DNA from: an uncultured Ectothiorhodospiraceae bacterium
GTDB taxonomy: Bacteria > Pseudomonadota > Gammaproteobacteria > S012-40
Direction: 5' to 3'
Assembly (NCBI GenBank): GCA_945787715.1
Contig: CALZJE010000003.1
Coordinates: forward strand, 6,088-70,087
Length of the DNA stretch: 64,000 nt
A program made the position numbers and the translations under genes. Below the pieces are notes generated by a model, which had not been told where the DNA came from, ran no database searches, and worked only from the letters and a program-made list of their open reading frames with translations. Of the stretch, positions 8,151 through 60,591 are shown piece by piece (position 1 is the first letter of the stretch; each line of letters opens with the position of its first letter).

Positions 8151-8594
8151 TTATCGATGAATCACATATTTACCAGAAAAACTTACGGCAATTTGGTTTT
8201 CATTTTTAATTTCGACATCCAATAATATGCGTGATCTCCCTCTTTTTTGAAAAGTTGAGATAAATTTTTCGACCACTTCCTTAGATGGCATTTTGCACTT
8301 ACCGATTATATCTGACTGTATTGCCATACTATAATCTATTTCACTATGCTGAATGACCACATGTGCTTTTATATTCTTTCTTAATAAAATCCCATATACC
8401 ATAGCCCAACCTGTGAGCACGGACACATTGTATAAACTACCACCAAATGCAGTCTTCTTATGATTTATATTGGGAGCTAATGGAGCTTTTACAACTATCT
8501 CATCATCGTTAAAACTCTCGATGCTTATCCCCATCTGGGTACTGAGTGGAATTTCAGTATGAATTATTTCTTCGATTATTTTATGTAATTGCAT
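8151..8594 (-). CDS. Hotdog-fold thioesterase-like protein (YiiD C-terminal domain-like)
   Basis: 147 aa that resembles the YiiD_C putative thioesterase family (…KTAFGGSLYNVSVLTGWAMVY…). Assignment is from memory of the family consensus. Confidence 0.4.
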   Translation of the reverse strand: MQLHKIIEEIIHTEIPLSTQMGISIESFNDDEIVVKAPLAPNINHKKTAFGGSLYNVSVLTGWAMVYGILLRKNIKAHVVIQHSEIDYSMAIQSDIIGKCKMPSKEVVEKFISTFQKRGRSRILLDVEIKNENQIAVSFSGKYVIHR

Positions 8595-8621
8595 TTTTAG
8601 GCTTATGTTTAACTATTGGAT

Positions 8622-8830
8622 ATTTCACGAAGCTCTTCTGTTTGCATTGGCTGTACAAAGTAATAACCTCGATAATAATGACAACTATATTCTTTTAAGA
8701 ATTCATGTTGTTCGAAAGTTTCAAAACCCTCAGCAACCACGCTCAAACCCAAGTGATGAGATATTTAAATGATAGTATCAACAATCACTTAACCTTTTCC
8801 AAAATCATCTGTCACAATTAAGACTTGAGG
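8622..8830 (-). pseudogene. Decayed remnant of an EAL-domain (c-di-GMP phosphodiesterase) gene
   Basis: A minus-strand frame gives ISHHLGLSVVAEGFETFEQHEFLKEYSCHYYRGYYFVQPMQTEELRE, which is the EAL C-terminal signature (VAEGVET…GYYF.KP). A different frame ~40 nt upstream gives IVTDDFGKG (the DDFGTGYSS motif). Stops and frameshifts separate the pieces, and the region has no ORF of 60 aa or longer. Confidence 0.55.
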
Positions 8831-9092
8831 ATATAGCTGAACGATGAACTAATTTTTCTTTAATGCATTTCGTAACTGATTTTGTAAACCCTGTTCAAGA
8901 AACCTTTAATGTCACAATATTTTGTGGAGATAAAAAAATTATTATATAAATGGTTAATGTTTTGACAGAATTACTTAAAAAAGATCCATACTCTTTTCAG
9001 TAGTTGCGTGACAATTCAGAAATACTTACAAAATACCGAAACTATTTCTGACCACATTAAATTCAATATTGAATAATAACTAATCAAATATT

Positions 9093-9860
9093 ATGCTAAA
9101 AACTCGAACAATTGTAATGATACTTTCTTTTTTTATGTCTGAAGCTAACGCCATAGTTAATATGGATAACCTCCATTTAAACTCAAATAAGGGAGGAATT
9201 TCAGGGAATTTCAATCTAAATTCATCTGGTGCATATGGGAATAGTGAACAATTTCTTATTGAAAGTGGAGCTGATTTCTATGCCAAACAATCTCAGTCAC
9301 TTCAATATTTAACACTAAACTATAGCTACGGTGAAAGTTTCTCCAAAGAAAATCAAAACAAATCCTATGTTCATCTTCGTCATATCAACAATGTAGACAG
9401 CAGCTCAACTTGGGAAATATTTACCCAAATTGAACAAAACAAATTTGCTCGATTAAACTTTAGAGGTTTAGTTGGTGGAGGCTATCGATGGAGTTTTTTA
9501 AAACATTCTAAACATAGCTCATCAATCATCGGTGTTGGTGCTTACTTTAGTGAGGAATATTTAACCCACTCTAGTGACATTAGTGAAGAAAGAAGCCTGC
9601 AATTGTTTCGAGGTAACTTCTATTGGATTTTTCGCACTAACATCTTAGAGAACATTACATTATTTAACACCACATACTATCAACCTGATCTCGAAAACCC
9701 TGATGATTACCGAGTTTTGGAAATAGCCGGGATCAAAATACCTTTATCAAAAAATTTGAGATTGAATTTATATGGGGAAGGAACTTTCGATAGCAAACCA
9801 CCAGCTAATGTAAAAAAAGGTGATTTGTCATATAAGACTGGAATTGAGTATAAGTTCTAA
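9093..9860 (+). CDS. Outer-membrane beta-barrel protein, DUF481-like
   Basis: Signal peptide, ~255 aa, alternating amphipathic beta-strand pattern and a C-terminal aromatic (…GIEYKF). Confidence 0.45.
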   Translation: MLKTRTIVMILSFFMSEANAIVNMDNLHLNSNKGGISGNFNLNSSGAYGNSEQFLIESGADFYAKQSQSLQYLTLNYSYGESFSKENQNKSYVHLRHINNVDSSSTWEIFTQIEQNKFARLNFRGLVGGGYRWSFLKHSKHSSSIIGVGAYFSEEYLTHSSDISEERSLQLFRGNFYWIFRTNILENITLFNTTYYQPDLENPDDYRVLEIAGIKIPLSKNLRLNLYGEGTFDSKPPANVKKGDLSYKTGIEYKF

Positions 9861-17422: not shown

Positions 17423-17438
17423 TGGCATATGTAATGCT
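17423..17438 (+). promoter_or_regulatory. Sigma-54 (-24/-12) promoter upstream of glnA
   Basis: TGGCAT-ATGTA-ATGCT with GG-N10-GC spacing, ~60 nt upstream of the glnA ATG. Confidence 0.6.
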
Positions 17439-17496: not shown

Positions 17497-18903
17497 ATGC
17501 CGTCTAACGTTTTAAAGATGATGAAAGAATTTGAAGTGAAGTTTGTTGATTTTCGCTTCTCAGATACTCGCGGTAAACAAATGCATTTAACAGTTCCAAG
17601 TACAGCTGTTGATGAAGATTCATTAAAAGAAGGGATGATGTTTGATGGTTCTTCAATCAATGGTTGGAAGGGCATCAATGAGTCAGACATGATTTTGATG
17701 CCAGATCCAAGTACTGCGACAATGGATCCTTTCACTGAAGATTCAACGTTAAACATCGTATGTGATGTTGTTGAGCCAGCCACTATGTCTGGTTATGAGC
17801 GTGATCCTCGTTCTGTTGCTAAACGTGCAGAAGAATTTTTGAAATCTACAGGTATTGCAGATACCGCTTTCTTCGGTCCTGAAAATGAGTTTTTTGTGCT
17901 TGATGACGTTCGTTGGGGTGCTGATATGTCAGGCTCTTTTTGTAAAATAGATTCAGAAGAAGCAGAGTGGAACTCAGAAAAAGTTTATGCCGACGGTAAC
18001 ATGGGCCATCGTCCAGGTACTAAAGGCGGTTACTTCCCAGTACCACCAGTCGATTCTTTGTATGACTTGCGCTGTGCTATGACTACTGCGCTTCAGGAAA
18101 TGGGGCAAGAAGTTGAAGTGCATCATCATGAAGTAGCAACAGCTGGTCAATGTGAGATTGGTGTTAAATTCAACACATTAGTTTCAAAAGCTGACGAAGT
18201 TCAAGATCTAAAATATGTAATTCATAATGTATCGCATGTATATGGCAAGACAGCGACTTTTATGCCTAAGCCGATGGTTGGCGATAATGGTAATGGTATG
18301 CATGTTCACATGTCTCTTGCAAAAAATGGCGAGAATCTTTTTTCTGGTGATGAGTACGGTGGTCTATCTGAAACTGCACTTTTCTACATTGGTGGAATTA
18401 TTAAACATGCGCGTGCAATCAATGCTTTCGCAAATGCTTCGACAAATAGCTACAAACGTTTGGTCCCAGGATTTGAAGCACCAGTTATGCTAGCTTACTC
18501 TGCACGTAATCGTTCTGCTTCTATTCGTATTCCTTATGTCACAAACCCTAAAGGGCGTCGTATCGAAGTACGATTTCCCGATTCAACAGCAAACCCCTAT
18601 TTAGCGTTTGCTTGTATGTTGATGGCTGGTCTTGATGGAATTAAGAACAAAATCCATCCTGGTGATGCAATGGATAAAGATCTATACGATCTTCCACCAG
18701 AAGAAGAGAAAGAGATCCCACAAGTATGTTTTTCTTTCGATCAAGCATTAGAAGCACTAGATAAAGATCGTGAATTTTTAACTGCTGGTGGTGTATTTAC
18801 TGACGACATGATCGATGCTTATATTGATTTGAAAATGGAAGAAGTAACACGTTTACGCATGACAACTCACCCAGTTGAGTTTGATATGTACTATAGCTGT
18901 TAA
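17497..18903 (+). CDS. glnA: Glutamine synthetase type I
   Basis: 468 aa with conserved GS-I motifs, including the adenylylation-site region NLYDLPPEE. Confidence 0.9.
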
Positions 18904-19638: not shown

Positions 19639-19655
19639 CTTATTCGCGCACTATA
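19639..19655 (+). promoter_or_regulatory. NtrC-binding-site-like palindrome upstream of ntrB
   Basis: GCACTA-TAA-TGGTGC matches the NtrC consensus TGCACCA-N3-TGGTGCA (GCAC-N7-GTGC). Confidence 0.5.
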
Positions 19656-19758
19656 ATGGTGCGTTGTTAAAATGCGGAATTCGTATATCCCATCTCTGTG
19701 CTTGATATTTTGAATATTGCGATTGTTAACACACTGTTTTTATTCGTGATTATTTAAA

Positions 19759-20886
19759 ATGGTCGATGCGTCTTTTATTGGTTTAACTATTGCAGAGAAG
19801 TTAAATATGGTGCCGAACGAAAAGTGTAATAATTCAATATCAAAAGATTTGCTATACGCAAATATGTCTACAGCGTTGTTGCTGTTAGATGCAAATATGA
19901 AAGTTGTTGAAGCGAATCAAGCGACTGAAAATTTGCTCAATACCAGTGCAAGGCGAATTAAAGGTCTAGATGTTCATCAATTATTTGCAGGATCAGAAGC
20001 CTTTTTAAGTGCGCTCAAGCAAAGTAAGAATAATAAATTCAATGTCACTAAAAGCGAATTAGATCTACTCGTTCCTCATCTGTTACGTGTCATCAAAGTT
20101 GATTGTATTTTTTCACCAATCATCGAAAACGAACAAATTTTGATTGAGATGACGCAAATAGATGAAAAATTACGCGCGGCCAAAGAAGAGCATATTATTG
20201 AGCAGCAGGATGTTTTAAAAATATTGGTGAGAGGTTTTGCTCATGAGGTAAAAAATCCTCTCGGCGGAATTAGAGGCGCCGCACAATTACTTGAACGTGA
20301 GTTACCCTTCGATGATTTGAAAGAATATACCGACGTTATTATTGGTGAAACTGATCGCTTGCAAAAGTTGGTTGATGACATGCTGGGTCCAAATCGACCG
20401 ATGTCTAAAGAACCTGTCAATATACACAAGGTAATCGAACGAGTTCGTCAACTTGTTTTAGCTGAATCGGATGGAAAGTTGATATTCCGTCGCGATTATG
20501 ACCCAAGCTTACCGGAGATTTTTGCAGATTCAGATCAACTCATTCAATCCGTTTTGAATATAGTTCGTAACGCTAAGCAAGCAATGAATGGTGAAGGCGA
20601 AATTGTTGTTCGAACACGTTCAAGACACCATGTAATGATTGGACAAAGACATCATCGCTTGGTTGTTGGTGTAGAAATTATTGATAACGGGCCAGGGATT
20701 GCGCCTGATCTTTTAGACAAAATATTTTATCCAATGATTACCGGTCGTGCTGAAGGTACTGGGCTAGGTTTATCAATAGCCCAGACATTGATTGGCCAAC
20801 ACGGCGGTATTATTGAATGTAATAGCAAGCCTGGAGAAACAAACTTTACGTTGTTGATTCCAATTAATGCTAAGGAAACGGTGTAA
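19759..20886 (+). CDS. glnL: Nitrogen regulation sensor histidine kinase NtrB
   Basis: Aligns with E. coli NtrB throughout (H-box HEVKNPLGGIRGAAQLL, N and G boxes). The true start may be 19807. Confidence 0.85.
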   Translation: MVDASFIGLTIAEKLNMVPNEKCNNSISKDLLYANMSTALLLLDANMKVVEANQATENLLNTSARRIKGLDVHQLFAGSEAFLSALKQSKNNKFNVTKSELDLLVPHLLRVIKVDCIFSPIIENEQILIEMTQIDEKLRAAKEEHIIEQQDVLKILVRGFAHEVKNPLGGIRGAAQLLERELPFDDLKEYTDVIIGETDRLQKLVDDMLGPNRPMSKEPVNIHKVIERVRQLVLAESDGKLIFRRDYDPSLPEIFADSDQLIQSVLNIVRNAKQAMNGEGEIVVRTRSRHHVMIGQRHHRLVVGVEIIDNGPGIAPDLLDKIFYPMITGRAEGTGLGLSIAQTLIGQHGGIIECNSKPGETNFTLLIPINAKETV

Positions 20887-20891
20887 ATATA

Positions 20892-22307
20892 ATGGCAAAA
20901 AAAGAACATATTTGGGTCATTGATGACGACAAATCAATTCGCTGGGTGTTAGAGCGTGCTTTAAGCAAAGCGGATATGGATGTTGATTGCTTTGAAAGCG
21001 CTTCAGGTATTCTCGATAAACTATCAAAAGGATTACCGGATGCGATAGTTTCGGATATTCGCATGCCAGGACAAGATGGTTTGGCGCTTCTTTCAGACAT
21101 TAATAAAGCTTATCCTGATCTCCCAGTAATCATTATGACGGCTCACTCCGATCTGGACAGTGCGGTATCGTCCTATGAAGGCGGTGCATTTGAATATTTG
21201 CCTAAACCCTTTGATGTTGACGATGCAGTTGATCTGGTAAGACGAGCAGTGGATCATAGTAGAAGTGCTACTACTAACGTCAGTGAACAAACTGAAGCTA
21301 CACAAACAGAAATTATTGGCGAAGCAGCAGCGATGCAGGAAGTGTTTCGAGCGATTGGGAGATTATCTCGTTCGAATATCACCGTTATGATAAATGGTGA
21401 ATCTGGGACGGGTAAGGAGCTTGTTGCGAGTGCACTTCATCGCCATAGTCCAAGAGCGTCTAATCCTTTTATCGCACTAAATACCGCTGCTATTCCAAAA
21501 GATTTATTGGAATCAGAACTATTTGGTCACGAAAGAGGTGCTTTTACTGGCGCGCAAACAACACGACGTGGCCGTTTTGAACAGGCTGATGGCGGAACAT
21601 TGTTTCTTGATGAAATTGGTGATATGCCCGCCGATTTACAAACTCGGCTTTTGCGGGTTTTAGCATCTGGAGAATTCTATCGGGTTGGTGGTCATGATCC
21701 CGTTAAAGTCAATGTTAGAATTATTGCAGCCACACACCAAGACCTGGAAGAGCGAGTAGGTAAAGGAAAATTCAGGGAAGACCTATTTCATCGTTTAAAT
21801 GTTATACGTATACATTTACCCGCCTTACGTGAAAGGCAAGAAGATATTCCACTATTGTTAAACTATTTTCTCGTTCGAGCAGCGAAGGAATTAAGTGTTG
21901 ATGTAAAAAGATTAAGGCCTGAAACTGCAAAGTTTTTGAGTCAGTTACAGTGGCCAGGTAATGTAAGACAGTTAGAAAATGTGTGCCGCTGGTTAACTGT
22001 GATGGCCCCAGGTCCTGAAATTCATGTAGAAGATCTTCCGGCGGAATTAAGAGAAGATGTGGTTAAAGCAAGCAGCAATTCTGATTGGGAAGGCGCTTTA
22101 AAGCTTTGGGCAAAAAGCAAGCTCTTGGCAGATGATCAAGGTATTATGGAGAATGCGACTCCCAGGTTCGAAAAAATATTGATAGAAGTTGCTTTAGCGC
22201 ATACCGCTGGGCGAAAACAGGAAGCTGCTAAATTGCTCGGAATTGGTAGAAATACACTGACGAGAAAGTTGAAAGAACTCAAAATAATTAGTGACGATGC
22301 AGCGTAA
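20892..22307 (+). CDS. glnG: Nitrogen regulation sigma-54-dependent response regulator NtrC
   Basis: Receiver domain, AAA+ domain with GAFTGA and a C-terminal Fis-type HTH. Confidence 0.9.
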
Positions 22308-22836
22308 CACTAGCTCCTGGCTATCTCCACTAACCGGTGAACTTGTACAGCAATCAAACCAATTCCTTGCACTCCAATCTCATACTCAACGGATCTTTTA
22401 AGATTTATCTTATCGGTTCCATTCCCGTATTAAACTTAGAAAAAAGTAGATTCATGAAATATACTCTGAGGGCTGTAACCCAACCCTTGTTTCGCCTAGC
22501 GATATGAAAAGCAATACTTTGTGTTTTTTTGATAGCCAGCTGCCTTTTCTAGGATAAGCCTAGAAAAATCAGTTGATCCGTGATTTAGCGCACAACCACT
22601 TGATTCACTTGGCAATATGAAAAGTATTTGAATCACCAACCTGGTGATCATAAATATTTTCATTACGCCAATCAAACCGCACACTTGCATGCTAATTTCG
22701 CATCCAACAGATCTTTCTAGGTTAAACGTTTTTAGCGCGAAGTTTCCTTCGCATCAATTTACTTCATTATTCAAAAATACGAATCAATCTTCGCTTCGAA
22801 AACATTTAAGTCATTGTTTTATATATGTATTAATCT

Positions 22837-22852
22837 TGGCATTCATTCTGCT
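22837..22852 (+). promoter_or_regulatory. Sigma-54 (-24/-12) promoter of the 22.9-28.6 kb operon
   Basis: TGGCAT-TCATT-CTGCT (consensus TGGCAC-N5-TTGCW) with GG-N10-GC spacing, 56 nt upstream of the ATG at 22908, which follows an AAGGAG RBS. Confidence 0.65.
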
Positions 22853-22907
22853 CCTATGCAAGAGATTAGTTTGATGTGATATTCAACCACGAATAAAGGA
22901 GAACAAC

Positions 22908-57663: not shown

Positions 57664-60591
57664 CTATATATAGTCATTCAACTCGGTCGGATAGTCATGT
57701 TTTAGTGCTGCAATCGCTTTTTCTCGACGCTCTTTTAAAACGGACAGACGTTCATTTGATACTGGTCCGGTACAAAGCCAATTTGCTTCTGTTTCCAGAA
57801 ATTCTTCCCAGGTGCCCTTCTCTTCATGATTTTGAAGTTTTTTTGATAAACGCTGTGCTTGAATCTTTAAACGATCTTCGGCGCTATCCTGTGGTGTTTC
57901 AATATCAGCCAATACTTCTAACTGGGTTGTGGTCATTTTTAAGTTTTCGTAATTTTGTTCAAGAATATCTGTACTATTATTTAACAACAGTTGGTTCAAC
58001 TGATTTATTCGATGTTCGAGCTTCTTCTGCCAGTCGGATTCGCTTATTTGCTCCGCTTGACTTAATTTAGCAATAATTGCGTCCACTTCTTCTTTCGCTT
58101 TATTTTGTTCAATAGCCAGTTCAGCAGTTTCACATAACATAGCAGATTCTTTAAGTGCTTTTAGTATTGAAAGTTTTTCTAACTTGCCGACGGATTCCAG
58201 CTTTCGTTCAAAAATATCTATGGCATCATTGACGCGTTTTTTGAGCTCTTTTTCCTTGTCCTTCACATTAGTAGATATGGATTGAAATTCTGCTTTAAGT
58301 TTTTGGAAAGAGGATTTTACTTCATCAATTTCTTCAACTGATTTTTGTGCCAACTGTTCAATCTGCTGACAAAGCATCTCTTTGTTGTTTATTGTTTCTG
58401 CTGCTTGTTGTTCTTTTTTCTCTTGCTCTTCATGACGCCGCGTAAAAACTTTATCACAAGCCTGTTTGAAAATTGTCCAAAGTTCGCGTTCTTTTTTAGG
58501 TTCGATTCGACCAGCATTTTTCCACGAAGTTTGTAATTCCTTCGCTTTTGAAATTGCCGTTCTTAAGTCTTCTATAGAAGTGAGTTCATTTGCGGCGTTA
58601 ATTAAGTCTTGCTTGGCATCGAAGTTTCGAGCCCACTCTTCTTTGAGTTTATCTCGCAAAGTGTTGTACGCAGTGTAAAATCGCTTGTTGAGCTCTTTTC
58701 TTTTTTCGTGATCGGTTTGTCCGAGTGATTGCCACTCACCTTTTGCTTGCCGGTGAAGTTGTTCAACTTTTTTCCAATCAATAGTTTCCCAATTAGTAAT
58801 CTTGATGAATTGTTCAAAATTTTCAAGAAACTCAACACGGCTCTGATAATTTTTCTCTCGAATTTCGGACTCTTTTTCAAAATATGCTTTGCAGGGTTCA
58901 TAGGCCTTATCACAGACTTCTTGAAATTTTTCCCACAATTCTTGAGATGTCTCCTTTTCCGAGGCACCGAGATTTTTCCACTCTTTTCTAGATTGGCTAA
59001 CAATAAATGCGATCTCTTTTGGATCATCATTGCTGTCGATCAGTGTTTCAACTTTAGCGATTAATGCTTCCTTCTGAGGGGTATTTGCCCAACTTTTCCA
59101 GTTGTTTAACTCATCAATTTTTGCCGATGCAATCGATAGATGGTTTTTATATTTTTGAAGACCTTTGACATTTAGCTTTTCGAGCTTTTTTAAAACTCCT
59201 TGCACATTTCTCTTGATACTAATGGCATCTTTAAGAATGCCCTGTTCCAAGGCTTCATTCAGTTTAGGAAGTTTATCTTTAACTTCGTCAATGAGCTTAC
59301 TGATGCTTTGCTCTTTTTCTTCAAGTTTGTTGATGGCTTTATTGATTTTATTACTGATTCTATTTTTTGCATTAAGCGCATCGGTGGATAAGTGACCGAT
59401 GCTCAGTGTCGTGAGTTGTTTTTGAGAATTTTGAATGTTGCTTTCAGTGATTCTTGCGATACTACTTAATGCACGATCGACATTTTTTTCGAGTGTAATT
59501 AGTTCGCTTAGCTGTGATTTTTCACTTTCAGCAGTTTTGATGATTGTTTTGATGGATCTAGAAATATCATTGAACTGCGTAGTAAGTTCAGTCTCCAGCT
59601 CAGAGGGGAGTTGTTGAATTGAGTGCCAGAGTCTTTCTTTCTCGCGGATAATTTCTTTGTGAGAATTTATCTCTTCATCGTTAAAATTGGGATTTTCTCC
59701 AAATGAGGCAAGTAAACTACTTAACTCAGAAATGATATTTTGTTTTTCTTTTTTTATTGGTAAAAGTGCTGCTTCTTGCTTGAGCTGCTCCTCATATCGT
59801 TTAAGGTAATTTTGATAATTTTTGTTAAATTGATTTTTGGCATCTTCAAAACGGTTGAGCAATTCAAGTGTTTGGCCTTCTGAAAGCTCTTGCCACTGAC
59901 TAGATAGATTATCAAATTGAATTTTATCTCTTTCCCAAAGCCCTTTTGTTCCCAATGCTTCCATTTTTGAACAAAGCGTTTTTTGGTCATTTAAGCGTTT
60001 TATCGGCAGCTCTTCTTGCCTAGTAATCTCATCAAGCTTCTCTTTTGCGATACGGCTAACAACTTTATCTTTGGTTTTTGTGGCTTTAAAAATCCTTTCT
60101 AATGTTGATTTTTGTGTTATTTGGCTAATCGCCGTTTTGCGTATTTCCGCATCGTTATCATTTATGGCAAGATTGCCCAGCAATGACTCCCGATTCACTT
60201 TTTTAATAGCGGTTAAACGCAATGCTGGTGTGACGCCTTTTTGAGCGATATATTCCACAACTTTAAGATTATCCAGCTGGGAGACTTTTTCCTGCCGTTG
60301 TTCATTGTTGAGGCTGCCCTCAGCTTCCCCCGATAACATTTGGCATAATATCTTATTGCCCAATTCATTAATCTTATTGTCGCTATCAGCTAGTGCGATT
60401 TTGTTGACAGCTGCCAAGTCGATTAAGCGCTTTAATGCGAGTAATCGTAATTCAGGAGAAGGATCATGAGTTGCAATCTGCATGAATACGTCTTGATGTG
60501 ATTCTTTATCCAGGTGTATCAACGCTTGTTTGCGGATTTCAGGATCACTATTTTTCCATTTTGGCTTGAATAGGTTTTGAAATAATTTCAT
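57664..60591 (-). CDS. DUF349 repeat protein (975 aa)
   Basis: Many repeats of the ~75-aa DUF349 unit (W.N.G…ELW.KF….C…F). Predicted coiled coil. Confidence 0.65.
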   Translation of the reverse strand: MKLFQNLFKPKWKNSDPEIRKQALIHLDKESHQDVFMQIATHDPSPELRLLALKRLIDLAAVNKIALADSDNKINELGNKILCQMLSGEAEGSLNNEQRQEKVSQLDNLKVVEYIAQKGVTPALRLTAIKKVNRESLLGNLAINDNDAEIRKTAISQITQKSTLERIFKATKTKDKVVSRIAKEKLDEITRQEELPIKRLNDQKTLCSKMEALGTKGLWERDKIQFDNLSSQWQELSEGQTLELLNRFEDAKNQFNKNYQNYLKRYEEQLKQEAALLPIKKEKQNIISELSSLLASFGENPNFNDEEINSHKEIIREKERLWHSIQQLPSELETELTTQFNDISRSIKTIIKTAESEKSQLSELITLEKNVDRALSSIARITESNIQNSQKQLTTLSIGHLSTDALNAKNRISNKINKAINKLEEKEQSISKLIDEVKDKLPKLNEALEQGILKDAISIKRNVQGVLKKLEKLNVKGLQKYKNHLSIASAKIDELNNWKSWANTPQKEALIAKVETLIDSNDDPKEIAFIVSQSRKEWKNLGASEKETSQELWEKFQEVCDKAYEPCKAYFEKESEIREKNYQSRVEFLENFEQFIKITNWETIDWKKVEQLHRQAKGEWQSLGQTDHEKRKELNKRFYTAYNTLRDKLKEEWARNFDAKQDLINAANELTSIEDLRTAISKAKELQTSWKNAGRIEPKKERELWTIFKQACDKVFTRRHEEQEKKEQQAAETINNKEMLCQQIEQLAQKSVEEIDEVKSSFQKLKAEFQSISTNVKDKEKELKKRVNDAIDIFERKLESVGKLEKLSILKALKESAMLCETAELAIEQNKAKEEVDAIIAKLSQAEQISESDWQKKLEHRINQLNQLLLNNSTDILEQNYENLKMTTTQLEVLADIETPQDSAEDRLKIQAQRLSKKLQNHEEKGTWEEFLETEANWLCTGPVSNERLSVLKERREKAIAALKHDYPTELNDYI

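Follow-up and report, generated by a model that had tools for sequence, protein, structure and literature searches.

The 64,000-nt stretch of DNA analysed here (the window) comes from an uncultured Ectothiorhodospiraceae bacterium and contains an operon of five genes, g1–g5, located downstream of the nitrogen regulatory genes ntrB and ntrC. A short element upstream of the operon resembles a sigma-54 promoter. This locus raises two questions: whether the element is the promoter of the operon and, if so, which activator acts on it. From sequence comparison, positions 22837–22852 very probably constitute a sigma-54 promoter of the g1–g5 operon, driven by an enhancer-binding protein (EBP) encoded in the same gene cluster. 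The promoter is accepted despite the weakness of the site because of its context, namely the EBP gene, the -24/-12 sites conserved at related loci, the palindromes that accompany them and a small number of natural controls.

The element and the translation signal downstream of it are as follows.

22837–22852, + strand: candidate sigma-54 -24/-12 element, TGGCAT, TCATT and CTGCT in succession (TGGCATTCATTCTGCT), read from the window sequence
22896–22901, + strand: ribosome-binding site AAGGAG, 6 nt 5' of the g1 ATG

The geometry of this region is as originally predicted. The GG doublet (22838–22839) and the GC doublet (22850–22851) are 10 nt apart, as in the consensus TGGCACG-N4-TTGCW, confirming that the invariant bases stand at the exact -24/-12 spacing. 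The distance of 56 nt to the operon also holds, measured from the last base of the element to the A of the ATG at 22908, as does the presence of an AAGGAG ribosome-binding site before the first gene. The start codon of g1 at 22908 appears secure because the N-terminus that it yields, MHDLDQTQ, matches the MHDIDRTQ conserved in homologues (pattern MHD(I/L)D.TQ). Standard sigma-54 geometry, taking GG as -25/-24 and GC as -13/-12, would place the transcription start at about 22863 and give a leader of about 45 nt. The site is intergenic, lies a short distance upstream of g1 in the same orientation, and is the only occurrence of GG-N10-GC on the + strand of the 600-nt intergenic region. A search of the + strand from 22466 to 22908 gave no sigma-70-like site, and 22250–22960 had no Rfam match.

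Considered alone, the element is weak. It matches 9 of the 12 specified positions of the consensus, deviating by C to T, G to T and T to C. A search of the window with the degenerate pattern TGGCAYN5YTGCW finds one occurrence, where 0.31 would be expected, and at least one match is present in 27 of 100 shuffles. When scored with a weight matrix built from 67 distinct orthologous -24/-12 sites, the element reaches 9.4 bits, at the low end of the training sites (8.2 to 23.5, median 20.5). This ranks it 6th among some 128,000 positions, and about 2.5 sites of at least this score would turn up in a shuffled window of 64 kb. The T directly following TGGCAT is found in none of 69 orthologous sites. 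The original prediction had proposed scoring with a weight matrix as a check and had called the promoter near-consensus. On this check the site scores low, and by itself it proves nothing and is not beyond chance expectation; "near-consensus" was generous for what is a weak variant, whereas the assignment as a promoter stands on conserved context and register. The position of the site, unlike its sequence score, does exceed chance: it is the sole GG-N10-GC of its region and is found at a conserved offset from two conserved palindromes.

The operon (22908–28645, + strand) has intergenic gaps of 5, 11, 37 and 36 nt and is followed by a convergent activator gene.

22908–23627, + strand: g1, 239 aa, no curated family
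23633–24946, + strand: g2, 437 aa, with HEVGH (190–194) and E230...D234
24958–26826, + strand: g3, 622 aa, Ig-like sandwich N-domain and conserved helical C-terminal domain
26864–27694, + strand: g4, 276 aa, N-acetylmuramoyl-L-alanine amidase (Amidase_2, Pfam)
27731–28645, + strand: g5, 304 aa, trypsin-like serine protease with homologues in 9 related loci
28736–30085, - strand: sigma-54 activator (bEBP), 449 aa, convergent and 90 nt from the operon end

The first three genes have no significant family in Pfam, NCBIfam or PADLOC. The g1 product has an acidic N-terminal part followed by a cationic amphipathic stretch and a glycine-zipper segment, and its C-terminus is conserved as GRW.R(R/K)G..I.L.G. 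Its 577 homologues are all labelled hypothetical or, loosely, 'DUF697', and one to three paralogues are present in other loci. When the E-value limit is relaxed to 5, g1 gives a weak match to the C19orf12 glycine zipper, the remaining matches of g1–g3 being noise. In g2, residues H190, E191, H194, E230 and D234 are invariant across 21 sequences, a signature (HExxH plus E...D) that resembles that of gluzincin metallopeptidases. More than 5,400 homologues of g2, at about 55% identity, occur in very diverse phyla, and those that are named are all labelled hypothetical. The predicted model of g2 (pLDDT 74) matched no solved fold (best E-value 0.2), and its profile found no match among PDB sequences or in Pfam. 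Homologues of g4, 49–64% identical, are found in 12 of the related loci, and another, of 57% identity, in Nocardiopsis. No signal peptide is visible by eye in g4 or g5. Elsewhere in the window, a 975-aa ORF (57664–60591, - strand) has no NCBIfam match at E <= 1e-10 and falls in a region whose AT skew is strongly negative (-0.29 at 58–60 kb).

The activator gene encodes, as judged from its motifs and helix-turn-helix (HTH), an AAA+ bacterial enhancer-binding protein of the NtrC type. Walker A (GETGTGKE, 157), an intact GAFTGA loop (205), Walker B (DEVGE, 229) and a C-terminal HTH are all present; the AAA+ domain matches Pfam PF00158 (Sigma54_activat, 3e-56) and the HTH is conserved in the family alignment. 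The closest solved structures are FleQ, NtrC1, ZraR and PspF. Conservation of the N-terminal domain, of about 110 aa, is confined to the protein's own family. The EBP falls below the cut-off of every named EBP family in NCBIfam. With the NtrC model (TIGR01818) it reaches 224 bits, the cut-off being 559, and it has no Pfam Response_reg match; comparison of its N-terminus with the NtrC receiver by hhalign is not significant (probability 1%). For RtcR (NF038308) it scores 261 bits against a cut-off of 650, over residues 126–382 only; no match to the RtcR CARF domain was found, and the PADLOC profile RtcR_PspF2 aligns at profile positions 164–472, the AAA+/HTH part. Alignments to NtrC1 and LuxO in the PDB start inside the receiver domains of these proteins, and the N-terminus of the EBP is possibly a degenerate receiver-like domain. 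No partner kinase is encoded in the cluster.

Evidence that the element belongs to a conserved control region comes from related loci. A genome scan yielded 80 loci with 10-kb flanks, to which the window proteins were aligned by tblastn. These loci represent at least 12 phyla (Proteobacteria, Nitrospirota, Acidobacteriota, Planctomycetota, Verrucomicrobiota, Chloroflexota, NC10, Calditrichota, Myxococcota, Desulfobacterota and others). The gene order is nearly everywhere g1 (one to three copies), g2, g3, variable genes and then an orthologue of the EBP. The latter is found in 45 of the 52 loci whose sequence continues for 11 kb or more beyond the start of g2, and is convergent in 40; the orthologues are 42–56% identical, the N-terminal domain included. 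In most of the 80 loci, a gene for an aminotransferase of about 370 aa directly follows g3, and one for an Amidohydro_2 protein of about 275 aa directly precedes the EBP gene; the window has neither. Between these two genes, the related loci contain varied genes for peptidoglycan-binding proteins or hydrolases.

Promoters were sought within 380 nt before the first g1-like gene, at a score of at least 17.7 on a scale with a maximum of 20.2; the window site scores 18.0. A -24/-12 site is present in 69 of 73 usable loci, against a background expectation of 0.039 per stretch. Three of the four initial misses (L014, L045 and L069) have a promoter outside the stretch first searched, bringing the count to 72 of 73. 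The binomial P is nominally 1e-92, a value that is inflated by the loci being related and not phylogenetically independent. Base frequencies at the orthologous sites give yTGGCAC(G/A)-N4-TTGCw. The T that the window site has at the sixth position is found in 16 of the 69 sites, and the C before TGC in 5. Most sites with an unambiguous start codon lie roughly 35–165 nt upstream of it.

The related loci also share sequences further upstream, which in the window correspond to two putative activator sites and a spacer.

22737–22752, unstranded: UAS1, the distal putative activator site, GCGAAG, TTTC and CTTCGC in succession (GCGAAGTTTCCTTCGC), a perfect palindrome that starts 100 nt before TGGCAT
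22779–22794, unstranded: UAS2, the proximal putative activator site, ACGAAT-CAAT-CTTCGC, with 2 mismatches, which starts 58 nt before TGGCAT
22795–22836, unstranded: spacer of 42 nt between UAS2 and the -24 element, 81% A+T

These sites were recognised from k-mer enrichment in the 310 nt before cluster promoters, where 57 of 70 regions contain CTTCGC/GCGAAG and about 9 would be expected to. The enriched k-mers resolve to the palindrome sCGAAr-N4-yTTCGC, present in exactly two copies in 53 of the 70 regions; about 60 related loci have GCGAAG-N4-CTTCGC before the promoter. Of 71 pairs of neighbouring sites, 17 are spaced 41 bp apart and 43 are spaced 42 bp apart, 60 in all; the spacing in the window is 42 bp. 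Across 1.4 Mb of loci together with the window there are 63 palindrome pairs, 61 of them directly before a cluster promoter, and UAS1 is the only match to SCGAARN4YTTCGS with at most one mismatch in the 64 kb of the window.

The proximal site starts at -45 to -49 relative to TGGCA in 20 loci, at -55 to -60 in 14 and at -69/-70 in 3, with looser groups at about -112 to -139 and -161 to -216. Steps of about 11 bp separate these offset classes, suggestive of a constraint to one face of the helix. When the window is lined up without gaps with the 13 other loci of the -55 to -60 class, the sequences agree only at the palindromes and the -24/-12 bases; the sequence between these elements is unrelated and strongly different in base composition. 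The A+T-rich spacer could be a bend or IHF region, and a single match to an IHF site with one mismatch, found by eye, carries no weight in DNA so rich in A+T. At one related locus (L041, 9254 and 9094–9151), a second palindrome pair and a weaker -24/-12 site (16.7) precede the second g1 paralogue; some clusters may thus have two EBP-dependent promoters.

A few loci serve as natural controls. One in Trueperaceae (L079) has g1–g3 and a best promoter score of 14.5; it is without a promoter-like site or a pair of palindromes, and no EBP is encoded within 21 kb. Francke et al. (PMC3162934) describe sigma-54 as missing from most phyla of non-LPS diderms and the whole system as missing from Actinobacteria, with only some Chloroflexi having it. 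A locus in the actinobacterium Nocardiopsis sp. YSL2 (L083; JAMOAO010000001.1, 7060–15018, 75% G+C), reached via a g1 homologue, contains in order g2, a full rpoN (8532–9845), a g1-like gene, g3, the Amidase_2 gene and a convergent EBP gene whose loop motif is GSFTGA. Of its two -24/-12 sites, TGGCACGAATCCTGCT precedes g2 by 60 nt and TGGCACGGCTCCTGCT precedes the g1-like gene by 58 nt. Both have CTGCT, and the locus also has a palindrome pair (GCGCAGCCGGCTGCGC) 42 bp apart at an offset of -46. The palindrome is a symmetric variant (GCGCAG), and the recognition helix of the EBP also differs (VSVRTLQ versus VTDRALQ); as a single case, this matched change of helix and palindrome is only suggestive. 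In two Chloroflexi loci, a full-length rpoN with AID, CBD and DBD domains (L035, 18581–20032; L071, 16175–17521) adjoins the EBP gene of the cluster. Taken together, the cluster appears to travel with sigma-54 control, and to carry its own factor where the host may not supply one, because the Trueperaceae locus is without all three elements and the Nocardiopsis and Chloroflexi loci have their own rpoN.

The mechanism that these features suggest is as follows. Sigma-54 RNA polymerase would bind at the -24 GG and -12 GC of 22837–22852 as a closed complex. Dimers of the cluster EBP are predicted to occupy both palindromes (22737–22752 and 22779–22794), which lie four helical turns apart and on a fixed helix face with respect to the promoter. 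The EBP would then oligomerise into an AAA+ ring and contact the polymerase across the 42-nt A+T-rich spacer. Hydrolysis of ATP, together with the GAFTGA loops of the EBP, would open the promoter, with transcription from near 22863. The signal is presumably sensed via the EBP's own N-terminal domain. Regulation of this kind is canonical, textbook sigma-54 control, and the promoter itself is unsurprising.

The operon had originally been tied to RpoN and to an enhancer-binding protein that was left unnamed. The first part is supported by the EBP gene of the cluster, the conserved promoters and the palindromes, and the activator is most likely the cluster's own EBP rather than NtrC, whose gene lies directly upstream in the following neighbourhood.

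17423–17438, + strand: TGGCATATGTAATGCT, 59 nt before the glnA ATG
17497–18903: glnA, upstream of the operon
between glnA and ntrB: a DUF4124 gene
19759–20886: ntrB, upstream of the operon
20892–22307: ntrC, with a 600-nt gap to g1

The glnA site is the top weight-matrix match in the window and has T at its sixth position. It is probably the glnAp2 promoter, a classical sigma-54 target, and as such is an internal positive control for this genome. No rpoN was seen among the annotated genes of the window; its presence in the genome is expected from the two intact EBPs and the glnAp2-like site.

This neighbourhood raises the alternative that the promoter is real and is activated by NtrC, which would place the operon in the nitrogen regulon, with NtrC acting alone or besides the cluster EBP. 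Beyond the proximity of ntrB and ntrC, which end 600 nt upstream, such a role would be consistent with a perfect palindrome about 200 nt before the promoter (ATCACCA-ACC-TGGTGAT, 22632–22648; 2 mismatches to GCACCA-N3-TGGTGC) and with a one-mismatch NtrC-like site before ntrB (GCACTATAATGGTGC, 19648–19662). However, glnA and ntrBC are nearby in none of the 80 related loci, where the promoter is kept regardless, and the conserved GCGAAG-N4-CTTCGC sites are unlike those of NtrC. NtrC-like matches in the window number 19 against 15 expected, which is no enrichment, and the palindrome at 22632 forms the tip of a hairpin of 76 nt and might have some other role. NtrC is thus an unlikely activator of the operon, and we regard this alternative as improbable; an extra nitrogen input in this particular genome is possible. 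The hairpin itself (22600–22675, -22.9 kcal/mol, z = -5.2) is a long imperfect palindrome between ntrC and the activator sites, and its candidate roles are an NtrC input, a read-through attenuator or a repeat element.

Less probable still, and in our view very doubtful, is that the element arose by chance or has decayed into an inactive remnant, and that the operon owes its transcription to a sigma-70 promoter that went unrecognised or to read-through from ntrC: the frequency of such sites in shuffled sequence, the three deviations from consensus (one of them absent from all orthologues), the lack of a predicted terminator downstream of ntrC and the reduced state of the cluster, without the common aminotransferase and amidohydrolase genes, would all agree with it, but the -58 offset from the palindrome pair falls in the class shared with 13 other loci, no other GG-N10-GC exists in the intergenic region, the five operon genes and the EBP gene are all intact, other loci, among them Nocardiopsis at both its promoters, also have CTGCT as the -12 element, and the glnA promoter of the same genome likewise has TGGCAT. 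Since the search for an intrinsic terminator after ntrC found none, some read-through into the operon is possible; it would come in addition to the promoter, not in its place.

A sigma-54 promoter served by the cluster's own EBP can be compared with several known systems. The combination of glnAp2 and NtrC is the classical example of a sigma-54 promoter that has two activator sites upstream (its consensus is discussed in PMC3162934). The two share the -24 GG and -12 GC, two dyad-symmetric upstream sites on one face of the helix (predicted in the case of the window) and an AAA+ activator with GAFTGA and a C-terminal HTH. They differ in that the window sites are of the form GCGAAG-N4-CTTCGC and stand 41–42 bp apart in the cluster, whereas those of NtrC are TGCACCA-N3-TGGTGCA; furthermore, the cluster EBP has no recognisable phospho-receiver, no kinase accompanies it, and its gene is convergent with the target operon.

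RtcR and PspF are activators without a phospho-receiver, each of which controls one adjacent operon. The cluster EBP resembles them in being a dedicated activator encoded beside a single target operon, and its best NCBIfam and PADLOC matches are RtcR or RtcR_PspF2, in the AAA+/HTH part. Unlike in those systems, its N-terminus has no CARF match and the target genes have nothing to do with RNA repair or phage shock. The cluster promoter is accordingly assigned, on the evidence of sequence, to the sigma-54 class but outside the NtrC, PspF and RtcR regulons, because the EBP stays below the cut-offs and lacks the defining N-terminal domains of these families.

The operon can also be set beside phage-type lysis cassettes and holin/endolysin-dependent ('type 10') protein release, in which a membrane hole-former is combined with a peptidoglycan hydrolase that has no export signal. 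As in these systems, a small, putatively membrane-active protein with a glycine zipper (g1) is encoded together with an amidase without a visible signal peptide (g4), and the type of hydrolase varies among loci (amidase, muramidase, M23, M74, CHAP, VanY). In contrast to them, g1 is no recognised holin, there is no spanin, control is by sigma-54 and an EBP, and PADLOC gave no phage counterpart for either g2 or g3.

What is new is the subfamily of activators with its palindrome, the fixed arrangement of two sites, and the connection to a large cluster that is uncharacterised and in some lineages has its own rpoN. Nothing specific to this cluster or its activator was found in the literature, where a paper may still exist.

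What the operon does can be approached from the genes associated with it. Among 115 ORFs between g3 and the EBP gene at 30 related loci, the most frequent were PG_binding_1 (28), Amidohydro_2 (27), aminotransferase (18), PG_binding_3 (14) and Amidase_2 (6); rarer were M20 peptidase (5), OmpA (3), trypsin (3) and VanY (2), with one each of muramidase, M74, M23, CHAP and 3D. Modules like g1 are also fused to PG-binding proteins, for example in L024 (14660–16633, PG_binding_1); part of the same ORF looks, by eye, like a GIY-YIG motif. From gene association, and with low confidence, the operon products may act on the cell envelope or peptidoglycan, in lysis, remodelling or antagonism, by means of interchangeable hydrolases. 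A function directed at peptidoglycan agrees with the proposal that the cell exterior is what sigma-54 mainly controls (PMC3162934).

The cluster stands between ntrC and trmL (30632–31096), and G+C is 0.41–0.43 over 20001–30000 of the window against 0.35–0.39 in the flanks, which would fit horizontal acquisition as an island. A broader reading, held tentatively and with a little less than even confidence, is that the activator, the two palindromes, the sigma-54 promoter, the g1–g3 core and the swappable hydrolases make up a self-contained, horizontally mobile and undescribed module for wall lysis, remodelling or antagonism, whose dependence on sigma-54 would be so tight that it carries its own rpoN in phyla where sigma-54 is described as missing or rare (Actinobacteria; Chloroflexi).

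Homologues of the cluster number in the thousands across many phyla. It belongs to no family in Pfam, NCBIfam or PADLOC, and no function has been described for it. The analysis defines its full control region (promoter, two putative activator sites and dedicated activator) and thereby offers a way into the system. That the cluster brings its own rpoN in Nocardiopsis and at two Chloroflexi loci also bears on the accepted view that Actinobacteria lack sigma-54 (PMC3162934). With the switch known, the system could be turned on at will, for example by means of the activator minus its N-terminal domain, and the effect on the cell wall observed.
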